From: a virus
Lineage: Duplodnaviria > Caudoviricetes
Length of the DNA stretch: 60,863 nt
Virus record (IMG/VR): IMGVR_UViG_3300032333_000288
Coordinates: 1 to 60,863 of that record
Reading direction: 5' to 3' (one strand)
Shown: in pieces, positions 10,176 to 60,863 of the stretch
Layout of the letters: each line of letters starts with the position of its first letter
How positions within the stretch are numbered: position 1 is the stretch's first letter
Made by a program: the position numbers and the translations under genes
Notes under the pieces: generated by a model
The model's input: the letters and a program-made list of their open reading frames with translations, nothing else
The model's database searches: none
What the model was told of the DNA's origin: nothing

Positions 10176-10269
10176 ACTTCGATCACCAGCCGCAGGTAGC
10201 AGCCGCAGGTAGCAGCAGCGGCAGTGTGGCGAAGGACGCCGTGATCCACGAACTGAGTCGGGATCGCAA

Positions 10270-32200: not shown

Positions 32201-35200
32201 GAGGTGCTGGCGATGATCCGCAAGGGCAACCAGTACATCAACAAGAGCACGGACCCGACGCTCGGCCCCTCGCCCGTCGAGGTGCAGGCGGACATGAACC
32301 TGATCCGCTTCCGCTCGAAGTCCGCGATCACGAAGAGCGACGAGAAGCGCGGCATCGCCGTGATCCCTGCCAGCGAGCTGGTGGCCTGGGTCTTCGCCAA
32401 CCGCAACGACTACAAGGGCGTTGAGGGCGGAAAAGAGAGTGCGTTGGAGTACCGCAACGCGCTGATGGAAGGCATCGGCGCGCTGGCCGAGGGCGGCTAC
32501 ATGGACGCGCTGCCGTTCATGATCAACGCCGAAGGCAACATCGAGCGCTTCGGCTCGAAGAAGCATGGCGGGTTCCCGCCATCGCTGAAGCTGGGCGGCA
32601 TGCGGCAGGCGGACCTGAACGAGGGCTCGAAGCGCATCGTCGCGGCGATTGTCGCCACGGACAAGGCGGAAAAGGAGATCCTCGACAAGATGACGCCGAA
32701 GCAGCGCGCCAAGTACGAGGCGGCTGCTGAGAAGAAGCGGAACGACGAGGTCGCCCGAGACCAGGAGAAGACTGAGAAGGTCAAGAACACGGACCCGGAT
32801 GAGCTGGTGAGCGAAGGGCGCGAGCACAACCCGAAGACCGCTGCGCGCCCAGTCGCTCAGCGCTCGCTCGATCTCGTGCCACCGTCTAAGGGCGAAGCCG
32901 GGCCTCACCCTGTCCTCATGTCCACGCCGGCCAAGGAAGCCCCGCCTGCACGGTACTGGGACGCGCCTGCGGCAGAGCCGACGGAGCCGGCGGCGTTCAC
33001 GAACCCTGAGTTCGACAACCCGCTGGGCACGCCCGACCGGCGGTTCGTGGGCGGCACCCAGATCCAGGGCGATCTGCCGGGCATGCCCGAAGCGCCCGGC
33101 CCGAACACCGGGGTCGAGCGCCCCTACACCACAGCCGTCGGCGTGTCCCGGCCCAGCCAGAAGGTGGACGAGAAGCGCTCAGGGCGCTTCCCCGTCGCCC
33201 CCGAGACCGTCGAGACCCGCCGCGACAACGTCGAGCGCACCCAGCTCGACTGGGACCTCAAGGCCCAGGACGGCGGGGTGCCGACGGACTTCACAGCCGC
33301 CCAGATGGCGAAGGCCGTCGCTGACGCGGCGCTGACAGAAGGCGAGACCCGCCCACTGACCCCGACGAACGCCACGGCCCGCGCGCCGGCCCTGGCGCGG
33401 GAGATCCTGTGGCAGCTCGACAGCTTCGACGGCCTGTTTGAGGGCAAGCGGGTGACGAGCGACGTGCCTGCCGACCCGCAGGGCGCCTTCCAGCGCATCC
33501 AGCGCCTCGTGGCGGCACTTTCTCGACCCGTCAGCACCACAGGTAGCCGCCCGGCCGGCGGGAGGCACTACGCGGCTCCCTTGGCCCTGATCCTGACTCC
33601 GGCGAACGTGAAGGTCCTGATCAGCAAGGCGCAGAACAAGGCCGCTGCCGGCCCGCGCCTGGAGCGCATGCGCGACAAGGTAGCACGAGCGCTGCTGCTG
33701 GCAGACGACAACGACCTGTCCCTGGCTGGGCGGGTGGTGGCTGCGCGGGCACTGCTGGGCAACGACGCCCTGACCAGCGCGACGATGAAGGCCCCGCTGA
33801 AGGTCATGGCTGACCGGGAAGAGAAGCGGCAGGCGGACGCGGCGGCGGACCAGCACCTCGAAGAGGTGGCGCGGAAAGCGAAGATTGCTGCGGTGCAGCA
33901 GAAGCGTTCAGCGAAGCCCATGCAGGCGAAGACTGAGGCGCCCGCAGAGGTCGACCTGTTCGGCCCTACGCCCAACGGGCGCCGCGCGCTGAAGACCGCG
34001 AGCATAGACACGCTGCTGAACGCCCGGGAGAAGGCCGTCAACCAGTTGCGCTACGACGACGCAGGCGTTGAGTACAACCCGGAACTCGATACGGATGCCG
34101 CAGTCATCCTTGCAACGCGCGTGGAAGCGCCGCCGGATGACGAGTTTTCGGCCGGGGTACTGCGAGCTATCGACGCTATCGACCACGAGATCAAGCGGCG
34201 TCGCGGCGAGGTGGGGACGCAGGCGAAGACCGAGCCGGCCAAGGTCAAGCTCAACGGCACGAGCGCCTACGTCGCCAAGGATCAAGCCAAGGCGGACAAG
34301 GCCAACAAGTTCATTGGGCGCGGCTCGGAGAGCAGCAGCACGGCCCAGTACGCCAAGGACTTCGGCCCCGCTGCCAACACCGGGACCTACGTCAGCACCG
34401 ACCGCGTGTTCGTGTCCGCTGAGGGCAAGCGCGAAGGGCGCGTGAACCCTGACCGCGCGGAGCTGGACAAGGCGGTGGCCGCGGGCGTGACGTTCATCAC
34501 CGACGACGCTCCGAACCGCGAGCGCGGCTACAACGTCGGTGAGCGGCAGATCGCGAAGTACCTGACCGAGAACGGCTACGCCGAGACGGCGCCGGGCGAG
34601 TGGATGAAGACTGAGGCCCCCGCCCAGACTCAGCGCTCCGTCCGCGACATGCCGATGAACTACAAGGACGGCACGAACGGCATGCGCATGCGCCCAGCGC
34701 TGGTCGGCAAGTCCACAATGGACCTGATCCGTGAGGGTGTCCGCACGGCCACGACCGGCGCGCTGGAGCGCTTCCGCGGTCTGAAGGTGGGCGACGTGTT
34801 CACGGTCGTGGGTGCAGACGACGAGCGCATCCAGGTGCGCATGACCCAGAACCCGCGCCCGGTGTCTGAGCTGACGCCGAGCGAGTGGGCCACGCCCGAG
34901 GGCTGGGCGACGGTGAACTACGCGAAGTACAAGGATGCATGGCAGATCAAGTACGAGCTGGTGAATAAGCCGGTTGCGACAGAGGCCCCGGCCCCCAAGC
35001 TCAACGCCATGCGCGGCCCGGCCCGGCCCACTCGCAAACTCAACGCCATGTCCGCGCGCATCCACAGCGAGCTGGGCCGGGCAGGATTCCCCGCCACGCA
35101 CGACTCGCCGATCCGGCACGAAGGTCGGTTCGACTGGCGCGAGCACGCCATGAAGGGCGAGGGCGCCATGGTCAAGGGCGCCGGCACGTACCTCAGCACT

Positions 35201-38200
35201 TCTGAGAGCGTGAACAAATACTACAAGGGGATGTTCACGGCGAAAGTCGAACCCGAATACGACTACGTGGCGGCTGACCGCATCAATACTCAGTTCATCA
35301 AAGCCGTCGGCGCGCGGACTGAAGTCAGCAGCGACGCCGCGAAGATCGCCGTCGGCAAGGGCAAAGAAGAAGCCGTCGCCTTCGTTCAACGGACCCTGGA
35401 CGAGCACCTCAAAGATGGGCCCGAGTCCACGATCTCGCAGGCCGAGTTCGATAAGTGGACAGAGCGCTACGAAAAATTGTTGAGGGCTATCAAAGCCATG
35501 CCGGAAAGCGAGATGCGTCCAAAGCGCATAGACGGGTTCCGAAACGACAAGTCCCCCACCTACGAAGTCTCCGTGAACATCCCGCAGGAGCAGCTCCTGA
35601 ACTGGGACAAGCCGCTGAGCGAGCAGAGCACGAAGATGCAAGAGGTGGCGAAGAAGGTGGCGGGCGAAGGGAAGATCGCAGACCTCTCACTGAAATGGAA
35701 ACAGGACGCCGACGATCTGTACACGGCAACTGACCCCGACACTTTCGCCATCTACACAATCCAGCAAGTCACCCCGAGCAAGTTCATCCTCACCGATGGG
35801 ATCGAAGAGATCGTCGGGATATACAGCTCACTCGAACAAGCGAAGCACGAAGCCGAGAAAGTGACGTTCGCCGGGCCTGACTCCGACAGGAAGATACTCA
35901 ACTACAGGGGCGAAGACTTCTACCGCGCGCTCTCGGACCACTTCGCTCCGGGCGACCGCGACACGGGCGACCGGCAGGCCAGCGACTACCTCCAAGCCGC
36001 TGGCATCCTGGGCCACCGCATGAAGGCCAGCGCCAAGGACGGCACGCAGAATCCAAACTACGTCATCTACGACGACAGCAAAATCACGACGAACTACGTT
36101 CACTTCAACGCCGAGACCGCGACCAAGGTCTCGTCGGACGCCGAAGTGGCCGAAGCCCTTGCCATGCTGAAGAAGACCCTCGGCCCGAAGATCATGGTCG
36201 AGGTCAGCAAGGACTTCCCGAATGCGGGCGAGTACCTCGAAGCTGAGCGGCTCATCAAGTTGTCCACGGTCATCGGCCCAGGCGTGCTCTCCGTGGCGTA
36301 TCACGAGGCACTGCACGACGCCTGGGCCAACGTGCTGAAGAACCACCCCGGCGCACGTGAGGCGCTGAGCAAGGTGATGTCGAGCCCTACCATGCTGGCC
36401 CGTCTTCAGGACAAGCTGGCGAACGAACCCGATGCCCTGGCGGCTATCGCCGACGGTGCGCCGCACGCAGCCGAAGAGCGCGTCGCCTACGCCTACCAGT
36501 TCTGGGCCGCGGGCGAGCTGGACGTGGACAAGCCGGCGACGACTCTGTTCGCAAAATTCCGCAAGATGCTGCGCAAGGTGCTGGGCATGGTGCGCGAGAG
36601 CGAGACCGCGCTCGACATCATGACCGCCCTGCACGACGGCAAGCTGGCTGAGCCCAGCGCTGCCGGGCGCGTGCTCAAGGAGATCATGGCCCGCGAGACC
36701 TGGAACGCGGACGTGAAGCGCAAGTTCGACAAGGTGATCCAGAACAGCTTCGCTGCGATCGCACCGAGCAACGACGTGCTGCGCCGCGAGACCCTCAGCG
36801 GCACGGCCCGGCTGCTGGGCAAGATCATGTTCTCGAACCCGGGCGAAGAGGCTGCGGGCGGCGACCAGGGCTACCTGAACGCACGCAAGCAGAAGATCGC
36901 CCAGTACACGAACTACCTGCACGCAGCCCTGAAGGGGCTGAGCGAGCGCGATCTGGCCGAGGTGGCGAAGCAGCTCCAGCTCAAGACACCTCTGGAGCAG
37001 ATCACCTACGCCCCAGTGCGCGACGCCGTCAAGGGTGTGCGTGCGCTGACGAAGCGGTACTACGAGTACGCCACCCAGAAGTCGCCGCACGGTGAGCCGG
37101 TGCTGAAGCTGGAGTTCCTCGGCGAAGACCACTACCCGCGCGTGTGGGACTTGCGCAAGCTCGTCGACGACGGTGACGGGCAGGCGAAGTTCATCGCCAT
37201 GCTGCTGCAGCCGAAGTACAAGAAGCCCATGGCCGCTGCGATGGCGATGGCGAACGCAGGCCGCAAGGTCATGACCCCCGTAGAGGTGGGCATGGCGATG
37301 GTGCGGGGGGAGAAGATCAACGCCGCATACACCGCCGAGCAGATTGCCCTGAAGATGTACGAGCGCCTCGTCGAGAAGAACGGCGTGGACGACATGTCCG
37401 CGGACAGCGACCGCATGGACGACGAGCTGCTCGACCCGTTCTTCGCCAGCCAGAAGGAGCGCAGCTTCAAGTGGCTGGACGACGCGGATGTGGAGCCGTT
37501 CCTGGACAAGGACGTTGTCTCGGCGATGACCCGCTACCTACACCAAGGCATCCGCGCTGTGGAGTTCAGCCGGCGCTTCGGCGAGCGCGGCAAGTTCCTG
37601 CGCCCGCTGCTGGTTATGAAGGGCGACCCGGTGTTCAACTCCGAGACCGGCAAGGTCGAACCGGCGGAGACCCACGGGCGCATCGCCAGCGAGATGTACG
37701 AGAGCCTGAAGAAGGCCGGCACGAAGGGCAAGGAGGCGGACCTGATCGTCGCCCGGCACATGGACGACGTGCGCAAGGCAGTCGCCGCGCATGAAGGCTC
37801 TCTAGGCCACACGATCAGCCCGACATGGCGCAAGTTCAGCAGCGCGGCGATGGCCTACCAGAACCTGCGCCTGCTGCCGCTGAGCCTGTTCGCTGCGTTC
37901 GGCGACACGATCGGCATCGCAGCACGTTTCGGCGAAGGTGGCGGGAAGCTGGCTTTCCAGGCGTTCACGCAGGGCCTGCGTGACGTGTACGCCCGCTGGA
38001 AGGACGCCGCCAGCGACATGCCGGCTGAGCGCCAGAAGACGGTCTGGGAGAACATCGCCGAGATGGTCGGCGCGGTGGACAGCCACATGCTCCTGGAACA
38101 GATGGGCAACGCTGCTGCCAGCGAGTTCACGACGGACTGGGCACGCAAGGCGAACCGTGCGCTGTTCATGGCGAACGGCCTGACCGCCTGGGACCGCAGC

Positions 38201-38929
38201 ATGCGGGTCTCAGCCACGAAGGCGGCGGTGCTCTTCCTTCAGCACCACGCCAGCCTGCCTGACAAGCAGCACAGCGCCCGCTGGCTCAAGGAGCTGGGGC
38301 TCAAGGTCGAGGACATCCCACTGGATGCCGACGGCAAGCTGATCTACGACCGGCACGTGCTGGCCGCGGAGAAGGGCATCTCCCTGGAGGACGCGACGAA
38401 GCAGGCCGAGAAGGTCCACTACGCCATCACCCGCTGGGTCGAGGGCGCGGTGCTGACGCCGACGGCAGGCCAGCGCCCGACCTGGGCGAGCGACCCACAC
38501 TACGCGGTGCTCTTCCACCTGAAGCAGTTCACGTACAGCTTCCACCACACGATCCTGAAGCGGGCGTTCAACGAGGCGGGCCACGGGAACATGGCCCCGA
38601 TCGGCGCGCTGATGATGGCTGTGCCAACGATGGTGGCTGCGGATCTGGTCAAGGGTGTCGTGGTGGGTGGTGGCTCGCTGCCAGCGTACATGCAGCAGTG
38701 GGACCTGGGCGATCACATGATGCACGGGTTCAACCGCGCCGGCCTGGGCGGCATCGGCCAGTTCGGCATCGACGGGCTGCGCGATCCGTTCAGTGTGCTG
38801 GGGCCGACGGTGCAGCAAGTATCGGAGTTCATCCTGAACCCGCTGGACATCGGGCACAACCTGCACAATGCAGTGCCGGGGGCTCGGTACATCAAGGGGC
38901 TCCCCGATCTGGCACGCGTGGCTGAGTGA
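29276..38929 (+). CDS. Giant internal virion polyvalent protein (SLOG-like, ASCH-like, ADP-ribosyltransferase-like and zincin peptidase domains)
   Basis: 3217 aa. ART-like THDSP/GEG...GAGTYLS/LLNWDKPLSEQ/NYVIYDD; HEALH...EER zincin motif; STMDLIREGVRTATT ASCH-like motif. Confidence 0.8.
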   Translation: MATLRDLVPGLDQSLAGLVPGSGPSPVQQGLRGPATALIEDEAEAAGMGQLRRGFTTGRLQADANALATDESAARAAGDTAAADALRLRIGGLQQRAKTFAPTEQDVTQLDWQPGRILDYGLATMGQGAASMTDPLAVGVGANAAAGVLGLIPHPLAQGGAKALRAGGILGGGYLNYRQNKGEFYNQAVEDPTLLAGRTAQEIDRAGTGHGVVAGALDTALPAWAANRIVPGGTKVLSGLGGGMKAALGLGGEAVTETLQGESKRGILGLLNPQRDTSGDAAERWNDAVGGAIGAAPIVGLSHLGDKANARLGVKDDTSSDDVSGGKTMPGAPKREKLTDSLKRGAAKYTDDDAAEKWNETLQGLHNPDQEVATTEQHAALLKELGGRAAKGDTVAQQHIDALNKLDPADSATWYGAPQRDAAYEHILGDGTDHEKVIEAYKGRKLNAQGGSDTAPVRLAASILSSSLPENADQALHAEAKDIARELASFADVAEGRGKLHDPLKAQGVAQRIADVFPGKTAAALVAKVATAIGVETTPLFKQLQQNLAGAADIANVKKSGRTSRAAVGDQLVALIPASKQLALRNEGIDLTSPAYKAALVDYVEQLGKAISYGATDNKGEPIAVSPSAYAKLTAKVGSEAAVAMLDMVSPGKIIEKESDAPKENGGGTTGPAKESDREGEKRSGGLGDDLEMDDFDIDAAKKSMERAPGAKLYLTKGKRGIATAGDTEGAHPFVRDKKTGNLPKLSLADDTDTKSGFNTLEAMEERAYEMLTGKPWEPLPGDDLKDMETYWTSMQKTVEEGGTKVTRRTTQELSPGQYIKNDDPKAQPVLGIGSFRIRRISAKDVMDDRGVAAGRRTTLLRQYLAQDGVLGEDDRTLTQLATLSRKIRELTDEAQPQPVKRNPQAVPLAGQGVAELEELKAQRTEVIAKLAKKIGVEAKDDATVEDLANAYFGQRFLITAEQMAEKDQLRLNQAEVLAMIRKGNQYINKSTDPTLGPSPVEVQADMNLIRFRSKSAITKSDEKRGIAVIPASELVAWVFANRNDYKGVEGGKESALEYRNALMEGIGALAEGGYMDALPFMINAEGNIERFGSKKHGGFPPSLKLGGMRQADLNEGSKRIVAAIVATDKAEKEILDKMTPKQRAKYEAAAEKKRNDEVARDQEKTEKVKNTDPDELVSEGREHNPKTAARPVAQRSLDLVPPSKGEAGPHPVLMSTPAKEAPPARYWDAPAAEPTEPAAFTNPEFDNPLGTPDRRFVGGTQIQGDLPGMPEAPGPNTGVERPYTTAVGVSRPSQKVDEKRSGRFPVAPETVETRRDNVERTQLDWDLKAQDGGVPTDFTAAQMAKAVADAALTEGETRPLTPTNATARAPALAREILWQLDSFDGLFEGKRVTSDVPADPQGAFQRIQRLVAALSRPVSTTGSRPAGGRHYAAPLALILTPANVKVLISKAQNKAAAGPRLERMRDKVARALLLADDNDLSLAGRVVAARALLGNDALTSATMKAPLKVMADREEKRQADAAADQHLEEVARKAKIAAVQQKRSAKPMQAKTEAPAEVDLFGPTPNGRRALKTASIDTLLNAREKAVNQLRYDDAGVEYNPELDTDAAVILATRVEAPPDDEFSAGVLRAIDAIDHEIKRRRGEVGTQAKTEPAKVKLNGTSAYVAKDQAKADKANKFIGRGSESSSTAQYAKDFGPAANTGTYVSTDRVFVSAEGKREGRVNPDRAELDKAVAAGVTFITDDAPNRERGYNVGERQIAKYLTENGYAETAPGEWMKTEAPAQTQRSVRDMPMNYKDGTNGMRMRPALVGKSTMDLIREGVRTATTGALERFRGLKVGDVFTVVGADDERIQVRMTQNPRPVSELTPSEWATPEGWATVNYAKYKDAWQIKYELVNKPVATEAPAPKLNAMRGPARPTRKLNAMSARIHSELGRAGFPATHDSPIRHEGRFDWREHAMKGEGAMVKGAGTYLSTSESVNKYYKGMFTAKVEPEYDYVAADRINTQFIKAVGARTEVSSDAAKIAVGKGKEEAVAFVQRTLDEHLKDGPESTISQAEFDKWTERYEKLLRAIKAMPESEMRPKRIDGFRNDKSPTYEVSVNIPQEQLLNWDKPLSEQSTKMQEVAKKVAGEGKIADLSLKWKQDADDLYTATDPDTFAIYTIQQVTPSKFILTDGIEEIVGIYSSLEQAKHEAEKVTFAGPDSDRKILNYRGEDFYRALSDHFAPGDRDTGDRQASDYLQAAGILGHRMKASAKDGTQNPNYVIYDDSKITTNYVHFNAETATKVSSDAEVAEALAMLKKTLGPKIMVEVSKDFPNAGEYLEAERLIKLSTVIGPGVLSVAYHEALHDAWANVLKNHPGAREALSKVMSSPTMLARLQDKLANEPDALAAIADGAPHAAEERVAYAYQFWAAGELDVDKPATTLFAKFRKMLRKVLGMVRESETALDIMTALHDGKLAEPSAAGRVLKEIMARETWNADVKRKFDKVIQNSFAAIAPSNDVLRRETLSGTARLLGKIMFSNPGEEAAGGDQGYLNARKQKIAQYTNYLHAALKGLSERDLAEVAKQLQLKTPLEQITYAPVRDAVKGVRALTKRYYEYATQKSPHGEPVLKLEFLGEDHYPRVWDLRKLVDDGDGQAKFIAMLLQPKYKKPMAAAMAMANAGRKVMTPVEVGMAMVRGEKINAAYTAEQIALKMYERLVEKNGVDDMSADSDRMDDELLDPFFASQKERSFKWLDDADVEPFLDKDVVSAMTRYLHQGIRAVEFSRRFGERGKFLRPLLVMKGDPVFNSETGKVEPAETHGRIASEMYESLKKAGTKGKEADLIVARHMDDVRKAVAAHEGSLGHTISPTWRKFSSAAMAYQNLRLLPLSLFAAFGDTIGIAARFGEGGGKLAFQAFTQGLRDVYARWKDAASDMPAERQKTVWENIAEMVGAVDSHMLLEQMGNAAASEFTTDWARKANRALFMANGLTAWDRSMRVSATKAAVLFLQHHASLPDKQHSARWLKELGLKVEDIPLDADGKLIYDRHVLAAEKGISLEDATKQAEKVHYAITRWVEGAVLTPTAGQRPTWASDPHYAVLFHLKQFTYSFHHTILKRAFNEAGHGNMAPIGALMMAVPTMVAADLVKGVVVGGGSLPAYMQQWDLGDHMMHGFNRAGLGGIGQFGIDGLRDPFSVLGPTVQQVSEFILNPLDIGHNLHNAVPGARYIKGLPDLARVAE

Positions 38930-43114: not shown

Positions 43115-43512
43115 ACTTTCTCCGTGATCAAAGCGGCAAGGGCCTTGCGGGTGAGAATTCGTCGTCGGAACTCCGAGGCGGGCAAAGGAGCCCAGTAGCC
43201 AGGCGGAAGGTACACGCCGCCTTCTTTGCAGCCGACGATGACAGCCACGTTGCGCCCTTCGTTGGCCCGATCGGTACCCCACTCGGCTTGAAGGGCACTG
43301 AGGTCAGGGACGACTAGCGTGGCGTCGCGCTTGGGCAGCACGACGAACTTGTACTCGATCCAAAGATCGGCGGAGTCTTCACCCTTGCCGCTATACCAGC
43401 AGTCGAACACACCGCCGACATACTCGTTGTGGTTCTTCATCCAGTACAGCGTCGCACGGTCCAGGTGGGCGTGGACGCTGTTGGTGAAGGTGGTCTCAGG
43501 CTTTGCGGCCAT
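43063..43512 (-). CDS. PD-(D/E)XK nuclease (VRR-NUC/resolvase-like)
   Basis: E...GVFD...WIEYK...LSALQ motif order. Confidence 0.7.
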   Translation of the reverse strand: MAAKPETTFTNSVHAHLDRATLYWMKNHNEYVGGVFDCWYSGKGEDSADLWIEYKFVVLPKRDATLVVPDLSALQAEWGTDRANEGRNVAVIVGCKEGGVYLPPGYWAPLPASEFRRRILTRKALAALITEKVCSTPTKSSPLEVKAGS

Positions 43513-43942
43513 GGTTCTCGGCCTTCACCAGGTCAAGCTCCAGAGCCGCGAGAGCGTTCCAGGCGACCTGGGCGAGGTGTAGGCACTGAGTGTCTGCATC
43601 GACCTGTTCGCCACGCCCCAGAGCCAGCATATGGCGCACCATGGCGTCCATGTATCGCTCTTGCCCGTTGGGTACTTCCTTCCACCCGTTGGGGCTGTAT
43701 TTGATGGCCCCCTTGGTGGTCACGTCGGCCACTGCTGCCAGGGCACGCGAAAAACCGCCGACGCAGAGCCACGCTCGGATCTTGCCGGCGTCGAGCTTGG
43801 CGCCCGGGGTGTTGGCCGGCACGCCGAAGGGGTCGGCCTCGGCGCGTCGGTCGGATGGGTGGGGTAGCTCTTGGCCAGTGAGCATGGCGCACCACGGGGC
43901 GTGCTTGCCTCCTGCGACGATGCAGTTGCACGGCGTGCTCAC
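43496..43942 (-). CDS. dATP/dGTP diphosphohydrolase-like protein (DUF5664)
   Basis: GAKLDAGK...GAIKY...GW...RYMDAMVRH...HLAQVAWNAL. Confidence 0.85.
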   Translation of the reverse strand: MSTPCNCIVAGGKHAPWCAMLTGQELPHPSDRRAEADPFGVPANTPGAKLDAGKIRAWLCVGGFSRALAAVADVTTKGAIKYSPNGWKEVPNGQERYMDAMVRHMLALGRGEQVDADTQCLHLAQVAWNALAALELDLVKAENHGRKA

Positions 43943-46871: not shown

Positions 46872-47447
46872 CTACTCCGCGCGTACGGTGAACCCGAAGG
46901 CCATCAGATCGGCCAGCAGGTTGGAAGTCGTCGCTAGTGGGTAGGGCTTGGCGATCTTAGGGATGTGCGGGGCCAGTTCAGGCAGGCGCTCCAACGCCTT
47001 CTCGACCGTGCGGACGCTGTTGAGCACGGCACGCAGTTGGCTCTTCGTTCGCAGGTACGCTTCAGCCAGCGCGGTTGCCTCAGCCGTCAGCTCCACGAAG
47101 TCGGCCTCGTGAACTTCGTCCTTGTGATGCGCGGTCGTGGGCACTGCGGGGTCGACCTGAACGCGATGCCCACCATAGTGCATGGTGGACTCGAATGCCT
47201 GATCGAGGATCTTGTGCGGGTTCCACTCTGCGTTGCCTGTCCAGACAGAGTCAGTCCACTGCAGCCACTCACGTGGCACCGTCTTTGAGAGGGCCACCAG
47301 CCCCGGAGGAGCGTCGCGCTCCAGCATGGCACACGCATGAGCACTAACGCGCTTCTCTAGCGCGTCACGTCGCTCCTGGAAAGTCGTCGAAGCGAGGACG
47401 CTGGAGACGATCTCGTCGATCATCGTCTTGTTGAGTCGTGTTGCCAT
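46872..47447 (-). CDS. Nmad5-like protein
   Basis: RLNKTMIDEIV N-terminus and LNSVRTVEKALERLPE C-terminus. Confidence 0.55.
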   Translation of the reverse strand: MATRLNKTMIDEIVSSVLASTTFQERRDALEKRVSAHACAMLERDAPPGLVALSKTVPREWLQWTDSVWTGNAEWNPHKILDQAFESTMHYGGHRVQVDPAVPTTAHHKDEVHEADFVELTAEATALAEAYLRTKSQLRAVLNSVRTVEKALERLPELAPHIPKIAKPYPLATTSNLLADLMAFGFTVRAE

Positions 47448-47520
47448 GGGTGTTCCTATTGAGTGATCCGTTGAGTGACGATGTGGAGGGCCGCTTTGCG
47501 GAGTTGATCTGAGCCATAGC

Positions 47521-49629
47521 TCACTTGCTGTAGTTGAAGGCGTGTCCACCCTCGGAAGACAGCGGGAGGTCTTTGCACCAGTCGAGCGGTACGGTCATGC
47601 GCTTGAGCATCTTGGCCGACGCAGACGACGCCTGAGCCTTCTTGACGCAGGCCACCATCTCGTCGTGCGTGGTCATCACCATGCGCATCGACTTGCTGAG
47701 GTCGAGCATCTGGTACATGACGATGATGCGGGCCAGGGCCTGCACGATGTTCTCGCAGAGGAGACCGCCGTAGATTTTCTTGCGGATGGGCTGGCCCTTC
47801 AGCGTCGAGGCGTAGGTCCACTCGTCCCACCCCTTGTCGCCGACGACCTTTCTCAGGTCGGGGTAATGCAGCCGCATGCCGTTCGGCAACCAGATGCAGT
47901 CTTTCTCCCAGTTCAGTGGGCCGTGGCTGCCTTCGCGGCCAGCAGCCATGTCTTCGATGATGTTGTTGCAGATGTCCCAGCCCTTGGCGATCTTGTCGTT
48001 CTTGCGGCGGTAGGTCTGCACCCAGCGCTTCGCTTCTTCGAGCGTGATGAAGATGGGCGGGCCACCGAGCGCACCCTTCGCCAGGGTGATCTGGAGCTTG
48101 GTTGGCCCCATCTGGAAGCCGAGGCCGAGGGTCAGCACTTTGCCGACGAAGCGCTCAGTCTTGTCGTCCTTGGTGATCGTGCGCCCATAGATGAGCGAGG
48201 CCATCAGGCAGTATGGGTCGGCGCCGGTCTTCGCGTCGCTGGCCTTGAACGCAGCCAGGATGTCGTTCTGCTTCCAGAGCCATGCGTTGACCCGTGCCTC
48301 GATTTGGCCTGAGTCACCGACGGCCAGCTCGTAGCCAGGTGGGGCTTCGATGGACTCGCGCAGGGCGCCGCCACGCTTGAGGTTCTGCAGGTTCCGTTTG
48401 TCGCCGCCGCCCAGCCGGTGCGTGTGCGCGCGGCTGTAGGCGTAGTAGGCGGGCAGAGTGCCATGCTTCGCTGAGGTCAGCATGCGCTCGGCGCGGGTGA
48501 TGTTCGTCGTGCTCTTGACGGCAATACGGGTGTCCACGAGCAGGCGCAGACGCTCGGACTTTGCTGTCATCTGCTTGATGCCCTCCGTGGTGTTCACGTC
48601 GGGCACAGCCGTCCAGCGCGTGGTGTCGTCAGGCAGGTTGACGAACTCCACGTCATCCTTGGCAAAGGCATAGGCCCATTTGCCGTCTTCGTCAGCCTCA
48701 CGCGCAGCTTTGTCCTTCTTCATCCAGGCTGGGCTGAGCTTGACCGGCGGGTCCACGCCTTCTGCGATCAGCAGATCGGCGAAGCGGTTCGTGCTGCCCA
48801 CGATGCGCTTGACGATCAGAATGTCGCGCTCCTTGCCTTCGAGTGCGCGTTCGACCTTTGTCTTGAGCACGGTCTTGTCGGTGTAGAACGGCTTCGGGTC
48901 GAGCACGGAGAGGAAGAGGGTCTCGCGTTCGGCCAGCTCGCGCGCCAGCTCGGCTTCGACGCGGGCCACGTTCACACGCAGGACCGGCTCGCAGAACATG
49001 CGGACCAGCACGTCGATGAGGTCGATCTCTTCGCTGGGCAGCGCGTAGACCATCTCTTGGAATACGCGCAGAGTCTCGTCGCCGTCGTTCAGGCAGTACG
49101 TCGAGGCTTCGGCATAAAGGGCCGGCGACCAAACGAGAATGCCTTTGGTCTTTTCGAGTACGTCGTGAATCTTGCCTGCTCCGCCGTAGAAGACTGAGAC
49201 CTCATCCAGGCCGGCGCCGATTTCGTTGGAGTGGATGCCGCGGGCCATGGACAGAGTGTCGTAATAGAAACTCGGAACCACACCGTAGTGGTGGCTGAGA
49301 ATGAGGCCGTCGAATTGGGTGTGGTGGCAGAGCAGGCCATGGGTGCCCCAGTTGATCTTGCGGAGTTCGGCTTTGATCTTGTTCGGCGGGATGATGCGGG
49401 CCGGCTTCAGGCCGACCTTCAGATACATCATCTGCGCCTTGAAGCGCGGGTCGCGGACGTATTCGGAAGTGGACAGTTTGGAAAGCGTGTAGTCCTGGTC
49501 GTAGTAGGTTTCTATGTCTACTACAACGAGTCTGTTCCAATCAACTTCTTTGGCTTGAAATGCAGGGCGGGCAAAATCCGGAGCGATGCGGCTAGTGACC
49601 TTACGAAGAGTGTTTTGCCAAGCGTTCAT
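47521..49629 (-). CDS. polA: Family A DNA polymerase with 3'-5' exonuclease domain
   Basis: Exo I VDIETYY; NLQNL; motif A DSGQIEAR; motif B RFVGKVLTLGLGF; ENIVQALAR; motif C HDE. Confidence 0.95.
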   Translation of the reverse strand: MNAWQNTLRKVTSRIAPDFARPAFQAKEVDWNRLVVVDIETYYDQDYTLSKLSTSEYVRDPRFKAQMMYLKVGLKPARIIPPNKIKAELRKINWGTHGLLCHHTQFDGLILSHHYGVVPSFYYDTLSMARGIHSNEIGAGLDEVSVFYGGAGKIHDVLEKTKGILVWSPALYAEASTYCLNDGDETLRVFQEMVYALPSEEIDLIDVLVRMFCEPVLRVNVARVEAELARELAERETLFLSVLDPKPFYTDKTVLKTKVERALEGKERDILIVKRIVGSTNRFADLLIAEGVDPPVKLSPAWMKKDKAAREADEDGKWAYAFAKDDVEFVNLPDDTTRWTAVPDVNTTEGIKQMTAKSERLRLLVDTRIAVKSTTNITRAERMLTSAKHGTLPAYYAYSRAHTHRLGGGDKRNLQNLKRGGALRESIEAPPGYELAVGDSGQIEARVNAWLWKQNDILAAFKASDAKTGADPYCLMASLIYGRTITKDDKTERFVGKVLTLGLGFQMGPTKLQITLAKGALGGPPIFITLEEAKRWVQTYRRKNDKIAKGWDICNNIIEDMAAGREGSHGPLNWEKDCIWLPNGMRLHYPDLRKVVGDKGWDEWTYASTLKGQPIRKKIYGGLLCENIVQALARIIVMYQMLDLSKSMRMVMTTHDEMVACVKKAQASSASAKMLKRMTVPLDWCKDLPLSSEGGHAFNYSK

Positions 49630-50054
49630 GTTTTGTTTCGTGAATTGGGCGTAAAGACTGCGTCGTACGTCAGTGTGTTTCGCCTGTGTCGCCAGAGGCG
49701 ATGGTGTAGAGTCGTCGGCAGAATTCGTAGCTTTTCGGCCCACTCCCAAGTCTTGAGCGTCTGCCCTCGGTATGTAATGTTTAGGGTGTAGTTGCGGTTT
49801 CGAGATTGAGTTCGTTTGTCGGCCCAGCGGCAGTTGTTTCTTGAGTAGCTGCGTTTGTTGTCGCGACGATCTAAAGTTGTTCCGTCAGGACGAAGACCCA
49901 TTGACGCTACAAAACCTTCATAGGTAAGCCACGATGAGGGAACAGTGATTCCTCTTGCACCGTAATAGGCAAAGTCTGTCGCGTTCGGGTTGAGGCAGCG
50001 GTTTTTCATCATCTGCCAAGACCGATAAGTAGGCTGATGTACGTTCTTCTTCAC
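49626..50054 (-). CDS. Free-standing HNH homing endonuclease
   Basis: SWQMMKNRC.NP...YYGARGI...TLDRRDN...YSRNNCRWA; lower GC than neighbours. Confidence 0.85.
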   Translation of the reverse strand: MKKNVHQPTYRSWQMMKNRCLNPNATDFAYYGARGITVPSSWLTYEGFVASMGLRPDGTTLDRRDNKRSYSRNNCRWADKRTQSRNRNYTLNITYRGQTLKTWEWAEKLRILPTTLHHRLWRHRRNTLTYDAVFTPNSRNKT

Positions 50055-55625: not shown

Positions 55626-56231
55626 TTAATTTCGTTGCGCTCCGACTGGAGTGAGACAAGCGTCTTTGATTGACCAGCCCATCCTCAGACGAGTGATGAT
55701 TAGCGTGTCGCAGCCACCAAGTTCCCGTGTCCAATCGATCATCAGTTGTGTGCGTCCGCCGGCGGTGAGCTTGCGGTTGTGGCGAGTATTGCGATGCTGT
55801 TCGAGGGGCGTAGCCCAGTAGCAGTTGGCTGGGCTGTAGTCCTTGTTGTTGTTCCGTCGGTCAATAGACGTATTCGGCGGACGCTCTCCCATGTCGTGAA
55901 GGAACAATTCAAAGTCATCCCACCGTTTGCAGACCTTGATGCCACGTCCACCGTAGTGTTTGAAGTCTTTTGACCGTGGGTTGTTGCAACGATCACGCAT
56001 GTTCGTCCACACCCTGTGCAGTGGCGAGCCAGTCAGACCATGTGTACGGCGGATGCAGCCGCACGAAGTTACTGCTCCTGTTCGCAGGCTTTTGCTATCA
56101 GTCGTTTTGAACTTGAAGCAACTGCAAAGACAGATCCAAGATACTCGGCCGTTGTAATGAGGGGCCTGGGCCACAACGGTTAGACGGCCGAAAGTCTCGC
56201 CTACGAGATGGACGGGGTCAGACATATGCAC
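55626..56231 (-). CDS. HNH homing endonuclease
   Basis: FGRLTV...WICLCSC...SCGC, WTNMRDRC, YGGRGIKVC, SIDRRNN...YSPANCYWAT; lower GC. Confidence 0.85.
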   Translation of the reverse strand: MHMSDPVHLVGETFGRLTVVAQAPHYNGRVSWICLCSCFKFKTTDSKSLRTGAVTSCGCIRRTHGLTGSPLHRVWTNMRDRCNNPRSKDFKHYGGRGIKVCKRWDDFELFLHDMGERPPNTSIDRRNNNKDYSPANCYWATPLEQHRNTRHNRKLTAGGRTQLMIDWTRELGGCDTLIITRLRMGWSIKDACLTPVGAQRN

Positions 56232-56286: not shown

Positions 56287-57462
56287 CTACACGAGAATGT
56301 CTTGATTCGCCAATCCCCATTTTGCGTACCTCCCCGTGCTCAGGATGTTCTTGTCGCGCGCCGTGGCGGCGCGGACGAAGGCCACCTGGATCTCGCGGCT
56401 CAGCCGTTCGACGTAGTCCATGACACGGTCGAAGTTGCTGGCCTTGGTCTTGTCGCTCAGCGTCATGACCACCGCGTGGGTGACAGGCGTGGAGCCCGGC
56501 AGTTGTGCACGCTTCGGATCCATCATGATGCTGTCGATGTCAGGCATGTCCTTGATGTCGCGGACGAAGCCGGTGAACTCGCCAGCGGCGCCTTCACCCA
56601 CGGTGCCCTTGATCAGCTCGAACTTCTCACCGGCGGTGTAGTCGCGCTTGTAGATGCGGTCCACGCCGTACCAGGCGCGCGGCGTCGGGAAGCAGCGCGG
56701 GTTCGCCGTGGTGTCGAAGGCGTGCAAAGCGTGGGTTTTCAGCTTGATGAAGGCACGGATGTGCGGGTGAATATCGTCGTCCGCTGCACGCATCAGCCAG
56801 TCGGTGGAATCCACCTCGTAGTCGATGTGCAGGAAGCGGTTCGCCAGCGGCGCGGCCATCTGGTACGTGATGCCTCGGTCGCCCTGATTGTTGCCAGCGG
56901 CCACGATGCTCCAGTTGTCGGGCAGTTCGTACTGGCCGATGCGGCGGTCGAGGATGAGCTGGTAGCAGGCGCTGGCCACAGCGGGCATGCCTCCGTTCAT
57001 CTCGTCGAGGAACAGGACACCAGGAGCGTCGCCCTTGCGCGGCAGGAAGTCGGCGGGCAACCACTCCATCTGCTTCTTCTTCGTGTCGGGCATGGGGAAG
57101 CCGCGGAGGTCGATGCTGTCGAGCTGGCTCACGCGCACATCGGCGAGTGAGCGCTTCGTGGCCTGAGCGATCTGGCTGACGACGCTGGACTTGCCGGCGC
57201 CCGACGGCCCCCAGATGAAGACGGGTTGCCGATCGTCGAGTAGCTTAGGGAGGACATGAGCAAGAATGGAGGGTTTCACGGATTTGGTTTCCTTGGGTGG
57301 GTTGTAGGTGGCGACGAGATAGCCGATGCCGAAGAACAGTGCGGCGACGAAAGCGAAGGTGCCGACGACGATCAGCAGCAGAACGCGGAATTGCTTGGTG
57401 CGGGACAGGGGAAGGAAGAGAGGCCGGCCGATTTCTTCCTCGTAGCTTTGGTTTTGGTTCAT
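56287..57462 (-). CDS. MoxR-like AAA+ ATPase with in-frame N-terminal TM extension; internal GTG start at 57279
   Basis: Walker A GPSGAGKS, Walker B LFLDE, AAGN, ANRF, TPRAW. Confidence 0.9.
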   Translation of the reverse strand: MNQNQSYEEEIGRPLFLPLSRTKQFRVLLLIVVGTFAFVAALFFGIGYLVATYNPPKETKSVKPSILAHVLPKLLDDRQPVFIWGPSGAGKSSVVSQIAQATKRSLADVRVSQLDSIDLRGFPMPDTKKKQMEWLPADFLPRKGDAPGVLFLDEMNGGMPAVASACYQLILDRRIGQYELPDNWSIVAAGNNQGDRGITYQMAAPLANRFLHIDYEVDSTDWLMRAADDDIHPHIRAFIKLKTHALHAFDTTANPRCFPTPRAWYGVDRIYKRDYTAGEKFELIKGTVGEGAAGEFTGFVRDIKDMPDIDSIMMDPKRAQLPGSTPVTHAVVMTLSDKTKASNFDRVMDYVERLSREIQVAFVRAATARDKNILSTGRYAKWGLANQDILV

Positions 57463-57503
57463 AGGCTACTCTTTGTTGTCAAGTGGGTTGGTGTACCACT
57501 GCA

Positions 57504-58043
57504 TTAAAAATCTCCCGACGCTACCTGGGCGCAGACGATGCCGTTGCGCCGCCACATATCGACGACGCGCTGGCGGTCGTCGAACACCATGACGAGGCGA
57601 GCGCGGTCTTCGGGGCTCATGGCGTGGAGCCAGGATTCCTTGAGCTGGTCATCGGGCGTGTAGTCGCCGGCGGGGCGCATCTTGACCAGCATATCGAACG
57701 GACCTGTGTACTTAAGGGAGACGTTCTGGTCAATCCAATCGAGTGTTTGTTCCCGCACAGTTTCCATGCGGCCTGACCAGATCCAAATCTCGGTCTTGAG
57801 ACAAGACAACGCCCAAACGATGTTAATGACCGGCTGAATCGGCGTATCGCCCACGCACGCGGCGTGGAAGGCGTCCCAGTTGGGCTTGAATGGGTGTTTG
57901 GCGCCACAAATGCACGTCGCTCGATCATTCGAGTTCCAGCAGGACAGACACCTGACACTTGGCCGCTCAACGAAGTGCCGGCGATGCTTCAGATCCGCGA
58001 GCGTGCCGTCGAGGTCGAAGATGTAGAGGGGTGTGGTGTTCAT
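57504..58043 (-). CDS. HAD phosphatase (PNKP 3'-phosphatase-like) with Cys-rich insert
   Basis: FDLDGT, SGR, MR...D...K, FDDRQRVVDMWR; insert CLSC...CIC. Confidence 0.85.
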   Translation of the reverse strand: MNTTPLYIFDLDGTLADLKHRRHFVERPSVRCLSCWNSNDRATCICGAKHPFKPNWDAFHAACVGDTPIQPVINIVWALSCLKTEIWIWSGRMETVREQTLDWIDQNVSLKYTGPFDMLVKMRPAGDYTPDDQLKESWLHAMSPEDRARLVMVFDDRQRVVDMWRRNGIVCAQVASGDF

Positions 58044-58171
58044 GACGCCGTCCGAAGTTTGTGGTTCATGCATTTGACATGGTTGACTGCGTTCCACCAG
58101 TCGCGCGCGTTGACGGGCTGTTTGTCGGAAGTGACGTGCCAGCGACCGCGTTTGAAGTAGAAGCGAATCAT
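58040..58171 (-). CDS. Small hypothetical protein (43 aa, MIRFYFKRGRW...)
   Basis: AAGGAAG RBS; ATGA overlaps at both ends. Confidence 0.5.
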   Translation of the reverse strand: MIRFYFKRGRWHVTSDKQPVNARDWWNAVNHVKCMNHKLRTAS

Positions 58172-58404
58172 GCTTCCTTCTTCCTCTCGCCACGTTGACG
58201 CGCAGGGCGTGCATCTGCCAGCCGGTCCAGTGGAATCTCGACGCCGCCACGATGCACGAAGACAGCGTAGGGCCCGGCCTGCCGGCGCGCTGCGCGGATG
58301 ATGCGGTATGCCAGTTCGGCGGTGCCTGCCAGGGTGGTGTACGTCCAGCGCTGCACCAGGGTGCCGTAGGGGCGGTGCAGTTCGACCACGTAGGGTGCGC
58401 TCAT
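58168..58404 (-). CDS. Hypothetical protein
   Basis: ATGA-coupled ORF. Confidence 0.5.
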   Translation of the reverse strand: MSAPYVVELHRPYGTLVQRWTYTTLAGTAELAYRIIRAARRQAGPYAVFVHRGGVEIPLDRLADARPARQRGERKKEA

Positions 58405-58616
58405 GGTTGACCCTTCACCCACGCTATTGCAGCCAATACCCTGGCGTTGTGAGCTCCGTATTCCGCAAGAATCTCGGCGCGCGTCTGGTCGCTTTGGCCG
58501 TACTTTTGCGCCATCTGTTCGGGTGTGCAGTTCCTGAACGCAGCGCGGGCGCGGTACAGGTCATCGCCGAGCATTTGCTCCAGCGCTCGAATTGCTAGTT
58601 GCTTATGTTCGTTCAT
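58401..58616 (-). CDS. Hypothetical protein
   Basis: GAGGAGGG RBS; coupled ORF. Confidence 0.65.
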   Translation of the reverse strand: MNEHKQLAIRALEQMLGDDLYRARAAFRNCTPEQMAQKYGQSDQTRAEILAEYGAHNARVLAAIAWVKGQP

Positions 58617-58914
58617 CTTCCCTCCTCTTGCGTTGGATGGCGGCTGCTAGCTTGCGGAAGTCGTGCCTGGGTTGCTTGGGCGCTAAGCCCTTCAGCTGCA
58701 TCGCCAGCCGGTGTGGGATCGGCGTGTTACCACGCGCGTTGTTGCATGGCTTGCATGCCAGCTTGAAGTTCGACTCGACATCGCGTCCGCCCTTGCTCTT
58801 GGGCTGCAGGTGGTCGACCGTGGCCGTGCTGCGGAACAACTGGCAGTTGCACATCCAGCACCAGCGCGGCTTGCGCCCCTCGAACTGCTTGTCAAGGTAC
58901 TCGGTCGGTCTCAA
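58603..58914 (-). CDS. Small HNH endonuclease (McrA-like)
   Basis: CWMC...TVDHLQPKSKGG...N...ACKPCN. Confidence 0.8.
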   Translation of the reverse strand: MRPTEYLDKQFEGRKPRWCWMCNCQLFRSTATVDHLQPKSKGGRDVESNFKLACKPCNNARGNTPIPHRLAMQLKGLAPKQPRHDFRKLAAAIQRKRREDERT

Positions 58915-59305
58915 GCCCCAACTCCCACACGCTGTTCGGGCCGCGCTTCTTGATTGGCGCCGCCTCCTTGGCAGGGACGATCTGTCGCTTCAACGGCAGC
59001 AGGTCAGCTGCGTCGATCTTCTCCAGGGCACGCTGCTCACACTTCTGCCTTGCTCGCAGCTCGGCGTAGGCTGCGCGGTCGGCGTACAACAACTCGATTC
59101 GACGTGCGACGGTGCCGGGCGGACCCCAGTAGATACCTCGACCACGCCTACGTGTGCGTTCGACGAGCTTGCGCTTCTCCAGAGTGACCAGGATGTGGCG
59201 GATGACACCGGGCGTGAGGTTGAGCTTTGCTGAAAGGTCGCTGACCTTGAGGCCGTCGGTCCCGACTTCGACAAGGGCGGCGTGGACGAGGTCGGTGTGG
59301 GTCAT
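58892..59305 (-). CDS. Winged-helix DNA-binding protein
   Basis: [30 protein letters not shown] followed by a wing segment. Confidence 0.7.
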
Positions 59306-59790
59306 GTCAGCGAATCTTTCGGCATATTCTCCAGCGCTTTCGCAGGGTAAATCTGCACACTGCCTGGGTGGGCGTCGGACTCCACGGCATAGCCATCGGG
59401 CGTCAACGTCGTGCAGTATTCGCCCACCACGCGGCCCTGCCATGCAGACCCGCTGCGCTTACGCACACGGTCGCCACGGTTGAACGTGGGCTGCGGATGC
59501 TGGGCCTGAGGTGCTGCGTATAGCGGAACAACACGCCCACCAAAGTATTCGTCTGGCTCCCCGGTGTCAGCCCTAAATTCGCTGGGCGGCTCCGCGCCAA
59601 CGTAACTGCACTTCGGATTCTTGGGGTGCCATACCTTGTACGCCACCGGCTCAGACTGCGGCTCGGTCTTCCCAGTGGCAAGCATCCGGTCTATTTCGGC
59701 AACTACCTTGGCCGGGCAGTCCCGGTCATACTGCCAAGTCACGACCAGCATGCGCAGGTCTTCCAGTTGTTGGGTTACTGTGGCGTTCAT
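59302..59790 (-). CDS. Phage protein with a C-terminal DfrB (type II/R67 dihydrofolate reductase) domain
   Basis: [52 protein letters not shown] matches the R67 core, including VQIY. Confidence 0.9.
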
Positions 59791-60497
59791 TTCGTCTTCT
59801 CGCAGTTCTTGGCGTCGTCAGCGTGCTGGCAGATGTCAGTGCCCTGCCTGTCGCACCATGGGCACGTCATTGATTCCAGCGCAGTGCTGCAGTCTTCCCA
59901 CATCCAATCGTTTTGAGCGGCAGGCTCAGACTTAGGCTGCTCTAGGGCGTCACGTTCTGCGCACGCCTTTCCGTCTGCAAGGCCGGCGGTGTAGCCGGCG
60001 ATGAAGTCGGGGCGCTCCTTCAGAGGCTGTAGGGCGTGACCATTGCGCCATTCGTCGATCTCTGCTTGCTGTGCAGCAACCACCTCACTCGCACTGCAAT
60101 TCATCGGACTGCGCGGCAAGCGTTCCTGCCAGGGCTTCACGAACCGTGGTTGCTGGGCCTGTGGCACTTGCAGGGCAGCGATCCACTCATCGCCAATACT
60201 TCCAAGATCGTTTTCTCGGATGTAGCAGATGATTTCTCGTATGGTGCGAGACTGTGCCCCCGGCTCAGGCTGCGGCTCGGCTTGTTTGCATTTGCCCTCC
60301 GCTGCACACGGCTTGCAGACCAGCCAAGGACTGTCGTTGTCAGCACATTCGTGGACAGGCTGCGGCTCGGCCAGGGCGGCGCGGAGTGCTTCGGCATGCT
60401 CCCTAATGTCGTCATCGCATGCGCCTGTTTTACGCCAGCGGCGGTCAAGGAAATCTTCTGCCGCCTGCGCGGCTGTTCTCAGTTGCTCAGTCATCAC
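59787..60497 (-). CDS. Mosaic early-region hypothetical protein
   Basis: [12 protein letters not shown]-type linkers, two CxxC motifs. Confidence 0.65.
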
Positions 60498-60687
60498 TCA
60501 ATCTCCCGTGAAGGTTGACCGGCGGACCCACGTCCACCGGCTTGATCGGGCAGCGCTCGGTGCTGCACTCCCAGTACCCGCTGGACACGGCGCGCAAAGC
60601 GCTGCCGGTGCGCTTGCACTTAGGGCATGTGTCGGGCAGCTTCAGGCCCGTGTAGACCGGGCCATCGAGGGGGTGAGATTGGGTCAT
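60487..60687 (-). CDS. Small zinc-finger protein
   Basis: CPKC...C...C. Confidence 0.55.
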   Translation of the reverse strand: MTQSHPLDGPVYTGLKLPDTCPKCKRTGSALRAVSSGYWECSTERCPIKPVDVGPPVNLHGRLSDD

Positions 60688-60863
60688 GAGTGCCTCGGCT
60701 CGTAGCGCGCCGCGTGCGGCCCGCAGGCGCCGGCAGGATGGCGAGCGTCGATGCAGTAGCCGTACTCCACGCCCTTGGGGCCGCCCTTGCCGTGCGGATT
60801 GGGCTGAATCTTGCAGCGCTCAGCGTCCCTAGTGCCGCCGTCGTACATGTGGTGCGCGCAGGC
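60684..60863 (-). CDS. 3' part of a Cys-rich hypothetical protein truncated by the window end
   Basis: Open frame ACAHHMY...C...C...CGPHAARYEPRHS*, ending in an ATGA overlap. Confidence 0.55.
   Translation of the reverse strand, partial: ACAHHMYDGGTRDAERCKIQPNPHGKGGPKGVEYGYCIDARHPAGACGPHAARYEPRHS

Follow-up and report, generated by a model that had tools for sequence, protein, structure and literature searches.

The gene analyzed in this work belongs to an uncultured wastewater phage represented by one whole IMG/VR virus contig of 60,863 bases, estimated to be about 91% complete; this contig is the entire stretch of DNA that was analyzed and is referred to hereinafter as the window. The phage was classified as a KPP25-like podophage: among cultured phages it comes closest to the Pseudomonas phages KPP25 and phiR18 and those akin to them, with protein identities of 37-48%. 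The virion genes detected on the contig code for a terminase, a P22-type portal, a capsid protein, an SU10-type adaptor and a 3,217-aa virion protein, and the replication genes code for a family-A DNA polymerase, an SNF2 helicase, a ligase and PNK. No integrase or transposase family appeared among the Pfam matches of the 56 ORFs called in the window. The 3,217-aa protein is encoded by a single ORF (29276-38929, plus strand), of which only the last ~400 residues are covered by a PHROG family, that of a virion structural protein (E 3e-94); the remainder gave no family match. On the minus strand, a gene carrying an Nmad5 (nucleotide-modification-associated) domain adjoins the gene for the family-A DNA polymerase (46872-47549 and 47521-49749, respectively), and a dATP/dGTP diphosphohydrolase-like gene (43496-43942, minus strand) lies 3.6 kb from this pair; the two genes together hint at modified DNA in the phage.

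The DfrB gene belongs to an early operon read leftward, at a distance of 1.1 kb from the right end of the contig, and codes for a mosaic protein whose parts are listed in Table 1. Its ATG (59790-59788) overlaps the stop codon of the upstream ORF and its stop codon (59304-59302) overlaps the ATG of the downstream one (59305-59303), in both cases within an ATGA; these overlaps indicate that the gene is translationally coupled to the phage genes on either side. Since each overlap is only four bases long, an integron attC site could not be accommodated, in agreement with the original prediction, which had recognized no integron context at this locus. No in-frame ATG, GTG or TTG occurs between M36 and V109, the latter lying inside the DfrB core, so that the DfrB domain cannot be made as a stand-alone polypeptide. 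The GC content of the gene is 0.605 vs 0.636 for the contig, and its GC3 is 0.69, the neighboring early genes ranging from 0.63 to 0.82. Judging from the sequence, the DfrB gene is a genuine part of the phage. The protein encoded by the downstream gene matched Pfam MarR_2 below the cut-off (E 1.6e-4). A promoter scan of positions 57400-60863 returned no sigma-70-like site, and the three terminator-like sites found in the same interval are all on the plus strand and no more numerous than in shuffled sequences. HNH endonuclease genes occur inside the early/replication operon (58603-58914 and 55626-56231, both on the minus strand), one of them two genes downstream of the DfrB gene, and directly upstream of the mosaic pair lies an early ORF of 66 aa (60487-60687, minus strand) that resembles a zinc ribbon in having two CxxC pairs and for which no family match was obtained.

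Table 1. Features of the DfrB gene and of the genes coupled to it (positions in the window).
Feature	Position	Strand	Basis
Upstream tandem paralogue, 236 aa, mosaic, without DfrB	59787..60497	-	ORF; linker DNA repeats
Whole gene: hairpin, linker, beta module, linker, C-terminal DfrB	59302..59790	-	ORF, 162 aa, early protein
Module a: N-terminal helical hairpin, residues 1-41	59668..59790	-	AlphaFold2; similar hairpins in homologues
Linker 1, EPQSEP type, residues 42-48	59647..59667	-	DNA repeats
Module b: small beta module, residues 49-92	59515..59646	-	Also in some non-DfrB proteins; model
Linker 2, APQAQHPQP type, residues 93-101, directly before DfrB	59488..59514	-	DNA repeat
DfrB/R67-type SH3-like domain, residues 100-155	59326..59493	-	Pfam, NCBIfam, PDB, AlphaFold2, Foldseek
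Coupled winged-helix (MarR-like) gene, 137 aa, downstream	58892..59305	-	ATGA overlap; weak Pfam MarR_2

The original prediction had interpreted a ~53-aa C-terminal segment, at 59329-59487, as the core of an R67-type dihydrofolate reductase. This segment corresponds to residues 102-154 on the minus strand and falls inside a match to Pfam DHFR_2 (PF06442), the family whose search had been proposed as a check; the match (E 4.9e-30, 103.6 bits, cut-off 25) spans positions 21-76 of the 78 of the profile. A six-frame search of the contig with the same profile gave a single place, that of the domain itself, with 104.8 bits. The NCBIfam model trim_DfrB (NF000331) scored 109.9 bits, below the 137-bit cut-off set for resistance alleles. 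When the protein was compared with the PDB sequences using phmmer, only R67 DHFR chains were retrieved, with four distinct sequences at E 1.2e-24 to 6.1e-24, and the alignment with R67 is ungapped across 55 residues, with ~73% identity. In the AlphaFold2 model of the 162-aa protein, built from 40 aligned sequences, pLDDT is 88-95 across residues 101-160, and the modeled domain is predicted to be an SH3-like barrel of five strands that superposes on R67. Indeed, Foldseek returned seven matches with E<=0.001 for it, all of them R67 entries, with an rmsd of 0.9 Å, a target TM of 0.90-0.95 and 69-74% identity. The folding of four full-length copies without an alignment gave a score of 0.30 against a mark of 0.32, which counts as neither a pass nor a fail for the tetramer. 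On the whole, these searches confirm that the ORF ends in a true DfrB/R67 domain of the cluster-I, VQIY type.

The residues of the domain were numbered by setting VQIY as DfrB1 66-69, as in PMC12486381, and by carrying this numbering onto the R67 alignment. K32 (K111), W38 (W117), Y46 (Y125) and H62 (H141) are retained, as is the stretch S65-V66-Q67-I68-Y69 (residues 144-148), and position 45, occupied by W in R67, is E124; thus the residues that had been proposed as kept (K32, W38, H62 and VQIY) and the W45 to E replacement are all recovered on the alignment. The features that define the DfrB family in PMC12486381, a positively charged residue 32 (here K111) and a nonpolar/polar/nonpolar/aromatic motif in strand 4 (here V145-Q146-I147-Y148, the cluster-I form), are present, and so are the dimer-dimer interface residues W117, H141 and S144. 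The core could be extracted from 235 of the 239 homologues fetched, a set biased towards the relatives of the query, since it is made up of the best matches to it. In these 235 cores K32, Y46, V66 and Q67 are invariant (each 235/235), W38 and Y69 are each found in 234, S65 in 229 and I68 in 228, and H62 in 189, with E at this position in 45. Position 45 is occupied by T in 84 cores, E in 81, W in 45 and F in eight, so the W45 to E change is, as far as the aligned cores are concerned, an ordinary one in the family. In agreement with this, PMC9835603 reports that DfrB homologues do not conserve W45 and that other residues can take its place while structure and function are retained. For the 47-codon core of the viral copies, the Nei-Gojobori method gave a median dN/dS of 0.27 (1,831 pairs with dS 0.2-2.5), and one of 0.30 for the 65 pairs in which the copy of the window takes part: in viruses, purifying selection acts on the DfrB core.

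The portion of the protein preceding the DfrB domain had been described as unrelated to it, and no Pfam, PHROG or NCBIfam family was found in this N-terminus, which is consistent with that description; the ESM Atlas gave sub-threshold hits only, DUF551-containing clusters among them (0.76, TM 0.43), and these do not enter the interpretation. The AlphaFold2 model places two helices in module a (residues 2-21 and 27-39, pLDDT 63-76) and three strands in module b (50-54, 63-65 and 86-90), with pLDDT means for the successive 10-residue blocks of residues 41-100 of 80, 81, 79, 60, 75 and 74. These parts recur in other proteins in different combinations. An N-terminal hairpin of this kind, closed by an EPQ linker, occurs in the homologues P0003, P0004, P0007 and P0170; module b is found, with 66-81% identity, in P0005, P0006, P0121 and P0191, the ends of which are other modules, without DfrB; and in P0002, P0003 and P0004, too, the DfrB core comes after a linker of the second type.

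The two linkers are repeated at the DNA level. Linker 1 lies in a 25-nt repeat (59642-59666 and 60256-60280, 92% identity), with a further copy of 16 nt at 60356-60371, and linker 2 in a 17-nt repeat (59495-59511 and 60148-60164, 88% identity). Since both linker DNAs recur in the upstream 236-aa gene, this gene can be regarded as a tandem paralogue, put together at the same joints as the DfrB gene. The 236-aa paralogue, in which no Pfam, PHROG or NCBIfam family was recognized, comprises some six short modules, several of which are rich in Cys, strung on the same two linker types; its modules occur in other combinations in P0002, P0005 and P0121. In P0002 the first of them is joined directly to DfrB, and in P0121 it is joined to module b.

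A similar picture emerges from wastewater and aquatic metagenomes: nine runs from three studies contained half or more of the sampled words of the stretch 58800-60863, and a contig from another study contains the whole 2,064-base stretch with 18 differences. In one run (X6) no contig spans 59214-59489, a gap that carries no weight as evidence of absence. In the variants of this stretch the mosaic genes differ and the linkers are common; contigs from other samples match only 22-23-base linker stretches, with unrelated sequence in between. Two metatranscriptome runs contained small shares of the stretch, in contigs that belong to a relative and in which the DfrB gene is not covered; these contigs, from RNA libraries, track the downstream gene at ~90% (47 of 512 and 41 of 432 letters differ) and diverge at position 59311, six bases before its start codon. 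Near relatives have no DfrB cassette at this place. Thus, the shared linkers, the swapped modules and the point at which the relatives diverge together show that the DfrB gene is a mosaic of exchangeable cassettes. In the literature searched, the supplement of PMC12486381 (2025) aside, we found no account of such a linker-delimited shuffling of modules.

The DfrB domain is widespread. A search of 1.84 billion representative proteins gave 1,601 matches with E<=0.001 (977 with E<=1e-10), the lengths of the proteins ranging from 66 to 499 aa among the 150 matches listed; the closest relatives are environmental fusions with E at position 45, sharing 84-90% identity over the matched part. Twenty-six phage records have a DfrB match, in all cases within residues 83-162 of the protein, and none of them is a phage of the KPP25 group. 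Searches with the single protein gave no match in viral contigs and one weak match of 29 residues in metagenome contigs (L002). In IMG/VR, 210 contigs encode relatives with a near-canonical core, and the best 80 of these 210 matches were taken as the loci to be analyzed. A motif expression recovered the ORF in 77 of the 80 loci, the other three (L034, L043 and L064) being left out of the counts. These 77 ORFs are not independent, in that they form 28 clusters at 90% core identity, two of which hold 36 and 10 of them; 54 are at least 150 aa long and 20 shorter than 110 aa, and 47 combine a length of at least 150 aa with a DfrB domain at the very C-terminus.

The long fusions show a coiled-coil-like head followed by varied middle modules, with linkers rich in Q, P, A and T in between. 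A Pfam scan of 30 viral fusions recognized the DfrB family and, in single fusions only, two other families: a Lar-type restriction-alleviation zinc ribbon (L013:9197-10234, E 8.6e-9) and a DUF551 domain (L071:3085-4125, E 2.5e-8), each placed before DfrB in a temperate-phage protein. An expression for a 'PVAW...PLY' module frame matched only four of the 54 long viral ORFs, so that no general claim can be made for that frame; one or more matches to a looser linker expression were present in 41 of the 54. In two annotated temperate contigs the fusion is located in the interval that separates the integrase from the recombination genes (RecT, exonuclease, SSB), which in phage lambda is the place of ea22.

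As to the folate context, the original prediction had noted the lack of a thymidylate synthase in the window, and this holds for both types of the enzyme: no match to ThyA (PF00303) was found in the 60,863-base contig, with positive results in the control genomes, the contig being about 91% complete, so that a ThyA gene could sit in the missing part; ThyX and FolA-type DHFR were likewise not found in the contig. The same search was extended to 45 other DfrB-bearing viral records, i.e., those of the 80 loci lying on contigs of about 21 kb or more, which are not independent of each other, 31 of them coming from two lineages with cores at least 90% identical. ThyA was present in one of the 45 (one of 31 among those at least 90% complete), and neither ThyX nor a FolA-type DHFR was found in any of the 46 records, our contig included. 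The sole ThyA-positive record is a 66-kb contig (L036; DfrB at 9998-10219, ThyA with 179 bits), whose DfrB is a 73-aa stand-alone protein, i.e., the published ThyA-linked arrangement. In the sampled set, therefore, phages usually have the VQIY-type domain as the C-terminal part of a fusion, and no ThyA with it.

A remaining question concerns the role that such a domain might play in the phage. On the basis of what is known for the family, four C-terminal SH3-like domains would assemble into an R67-type tetramer, the pore of which would be lined by V145-Q146-I147-Y148, with K111 at its mouths, and would bind NADPH and dihydrofolate side by side, and the N-terminal modules would hang outside this tetramer. 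Such an arrangement is compatible with the active fusions described in the available text of PMC9835603 and PMC12486381, and by analogy the expressed protein would very probably have a weak, trimethoprim-insensitive DHFR activity. We are nevertheless inclined, with some reserve, to think that the primary role may be a different one, and that in this phage DfrB would represent an exchangeable, self-associating, nucleotide-binding end-cassette of shuffled and dispensable early accessory proteins, and not the partner of a phage ThyA. If so, the DHFR activity would be a by-product or a secondary benefit, and in temperate relatives this family of cassette proteins would sit where lambda has ea22.

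The main competitor of this idea is a dedicated early metabolic DHFR that would recycle the dihydrofolate produced by the host ThyA, raising the dTMP available for phage DNA, the N-terminal modules being incidental. It would fit the retention of all the ligand-contacting residues and the purifying selection on the core; the conservation of the pore, though, is also expected of a selected DHFR and so does not separate a metabolic role from that of a cassette. It would also fit the early operon, which is near the genes for PNK, ligase and polymerase and the dATP/dGTP diphosphohydrolase-like gene. Furthermore, a metabolic DHFR role is argued in the available part of PMC12486381 for the viral homologues located beside ThyA, and in that of PMC12466917 dfr and thyA are reported as enriched in lytic phages, the dfrB type accounting for eight of 1961 candidate dfr genes. 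Against it stand the lack in the contig of ThyA, ThyX or any other folate or nucleotide-synthesis gene, the rarity of ThyA in the other DfrB-bearing viral records (1/45), the fact that many DfrB carriers are proviruses, the position of the domain behind unrelated, shuffled modules in 47 of the 77 ORFs, and the near relatives that do without the gene at this place. In addition, PMC12486381 places the efficiency of DfrB enzymes about 100-fold below that of the host FolA. For these reasons we consider a dedicated metabolic enzyme possible, though rather unlikely.

Two other explanations can be given much less weight. If the gene were a bacterial resistance gene recently captured from an integron or a plasmid, the ~73% identity to the clinical R67/DfrB1 core and the recurrence of the stretch in wastewater metagenomes (nine runs, three studies) would be readily accounted for; yet the trim_DfrB score remains under the cut-off for resistance alleles, the domain is fused to phage-type modules and lacks a start codon of its own, the phage genes that overlap it by four bases at either end would leave attC no space, the base composition resembles that of the neighboring genes, and the closest relatives are environmental fusions with E45, so that a recent capture appears extremely improbable. 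A decaying remnant or a mis-called ORF without function, which might be suspected from a GC3 of 0.69 vs 0.80-0.91 in the replication genes and from RNA-library contigs (two runs) that all belong to a relative, none of them extending over the DfrB gene, is also very hard to sustain, given that the 162-codon frame is intact and coupled at both start and stop, that all the family-invariant residues are present, that dN/dS with the viral homologues is ~0.3, that the whole 2,064-base stretch recurs in the contig of another study with 18 differences, and that the neighboring early genes show a similarly low GC3.

Returning to the end-cassette interpretation, a bolder and more general version of it can be put forward only tentatively, as we think it somewhat doubtful: phage cluster-I DfrB domains might be mainly plug-in, tetramerizing and NADPH-binding end-modules of a hyper-mosaic protein family, of which the clinical 78-aa enzymes would be freed copies, DHFR activity being a by-product. 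In such a family, heads (helical hairpin or coiled-coil), small modules and C-terminal cassettes would be recombined at conserved P/Q-rich linker sequences, and the interchangeable small modules would include the Lar-like anti-restriction zinc ribbons and DUF551.

Several of these aspects are already in print. Phage DfrB homologues, their fusion to other domains and a possible non-DHFR native role are all dealt with in the available parts of PMC9835603 (2023) and PMC12486381 (2025). The former describes DfrB homologues inside larger proteins, including those of a Pseudomonas phage and a Vibrio phage; most homologues give trimethoprim resistance, both full-length and as excised domains, and the DfrB-like domain of the Vibrio phage confers it from inside a larger protein, which agrees with the statement of the original prediction that DfrB-like domains within larger proteins have been reported as active. 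DfrB-H3, from the Pseudomonas phage, gave no resistance, a result attributed to the lack of soluble expression, and the activity of a phage fusion is thus not guaranteed. In the accessible text of PMC12486381, 386 homologues were curated, 20 of which viral, and 148 tested; trimethoprim resistance was obtained with 114 of the 123 for which a DfrB1-like tetramer had been predicted, and the AlphaFold-multimer prediction, run on the SH3 region, matched the observed activity for 139 of the 148. The VQIY motif is reported there as exclusive to cluster I, and ThyA as present in three of ten cluster-I viral genomes and in all four cluster-II ones; 45 proteins exceed 160 aa, their partner domains being mostly helix bundles of unknown function, and the native role proposed is nucleotide binding or the promotion of oligomerization. 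The idea advanced by the original prediction, of phages as a reservoir of this fold with a native role that may be another one, is therefore the published view, and the presence of ThyA in one of 45 records fits it.

The phage analyzed in this work provides one more well-anchored example of DfrB domains as old, widespread and largely unrelated to antibiotic use. What is added is modest, namely the linker-delimited shuffling of modules and the IMG/VR counts: near-canonical VQIY domains occur in at least 210 contigs of IMG/VR, and in the IMG/VR sample these are mostly the C-terminal ends of long mosaic proteins, a phage ThyA being almost never present. For the surveillance of resistance, this implies that a DHFR_2 match in a virome does not equal a mobilized resistance gene. 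From the viewpoint of enzyme evolution, linker-delimited shuffling might represent a concrete route by which a tetramerizing SH3 module could be moved and, eventually, a stand-alone enzyme freed.

It is worth comparing the DfrB gene with known systems. In its architecture it recalls the lambda protein Ea22, which, according to the available text of PMC10834534, is an early protein, tetrameric at full length, with a variable C-terminal domain; both are early accessory proteins in which an N-terminal part and a coiled coil are combined with a C-terminal domain that varies. The C-terminal domain of Ea22 has a different, mixed alpha-beta fold in the same source, and our gene, unlike ea22, resides in a phage with no integrase detected. 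No Ea22-type family appeared among the 30 fusions scanned with Pfam or the 12 proteins scanned with NCBIfam, libraries that may lack an Ea22 model; with no link found between the sequences, the comparison is to be taken as an analogy of position and architecture only.

R67/DfrB1 and the clinical DfrB alleles (PDB 1vie, 2rk1 and 2gqv) share with our domain the fold and the residues of the pore and interface; clinical DfrB, however, are stand-alone proteins of 78 aa with W45, carried by integron cassettes, whereas ours is part of a fused, phage-embedded protein of 162 aa with E45. The cluster-II viral DfrB and the DfrB-TS fusion, as described in the available part of PMC12486381, are also phage-borne and also lack a FolA-type gene in the genome, but the cluster-II sequences have LHIF, LHIY or QMIA in strand 4 and ThyA within 20 kb, whereas ours has VQIY and no ThyA in the contig. 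The closest counterparts are DfrB-H3 to H6 of PMC9835603, two of which are phage-derived in the text available (Pseudomonas phage and Vibrio phage), and the 2025 fusions of PMC12486381: in all of them, as in our protein, a VQIY SH3-like domain is contained in a longer protein, W45 is not conserved and the context is not that of a resistance gene. Unlike these published fusions, ours belongs to a KPP25-like podophage and follows two linker-delimited modules that are shuffled among related genes.
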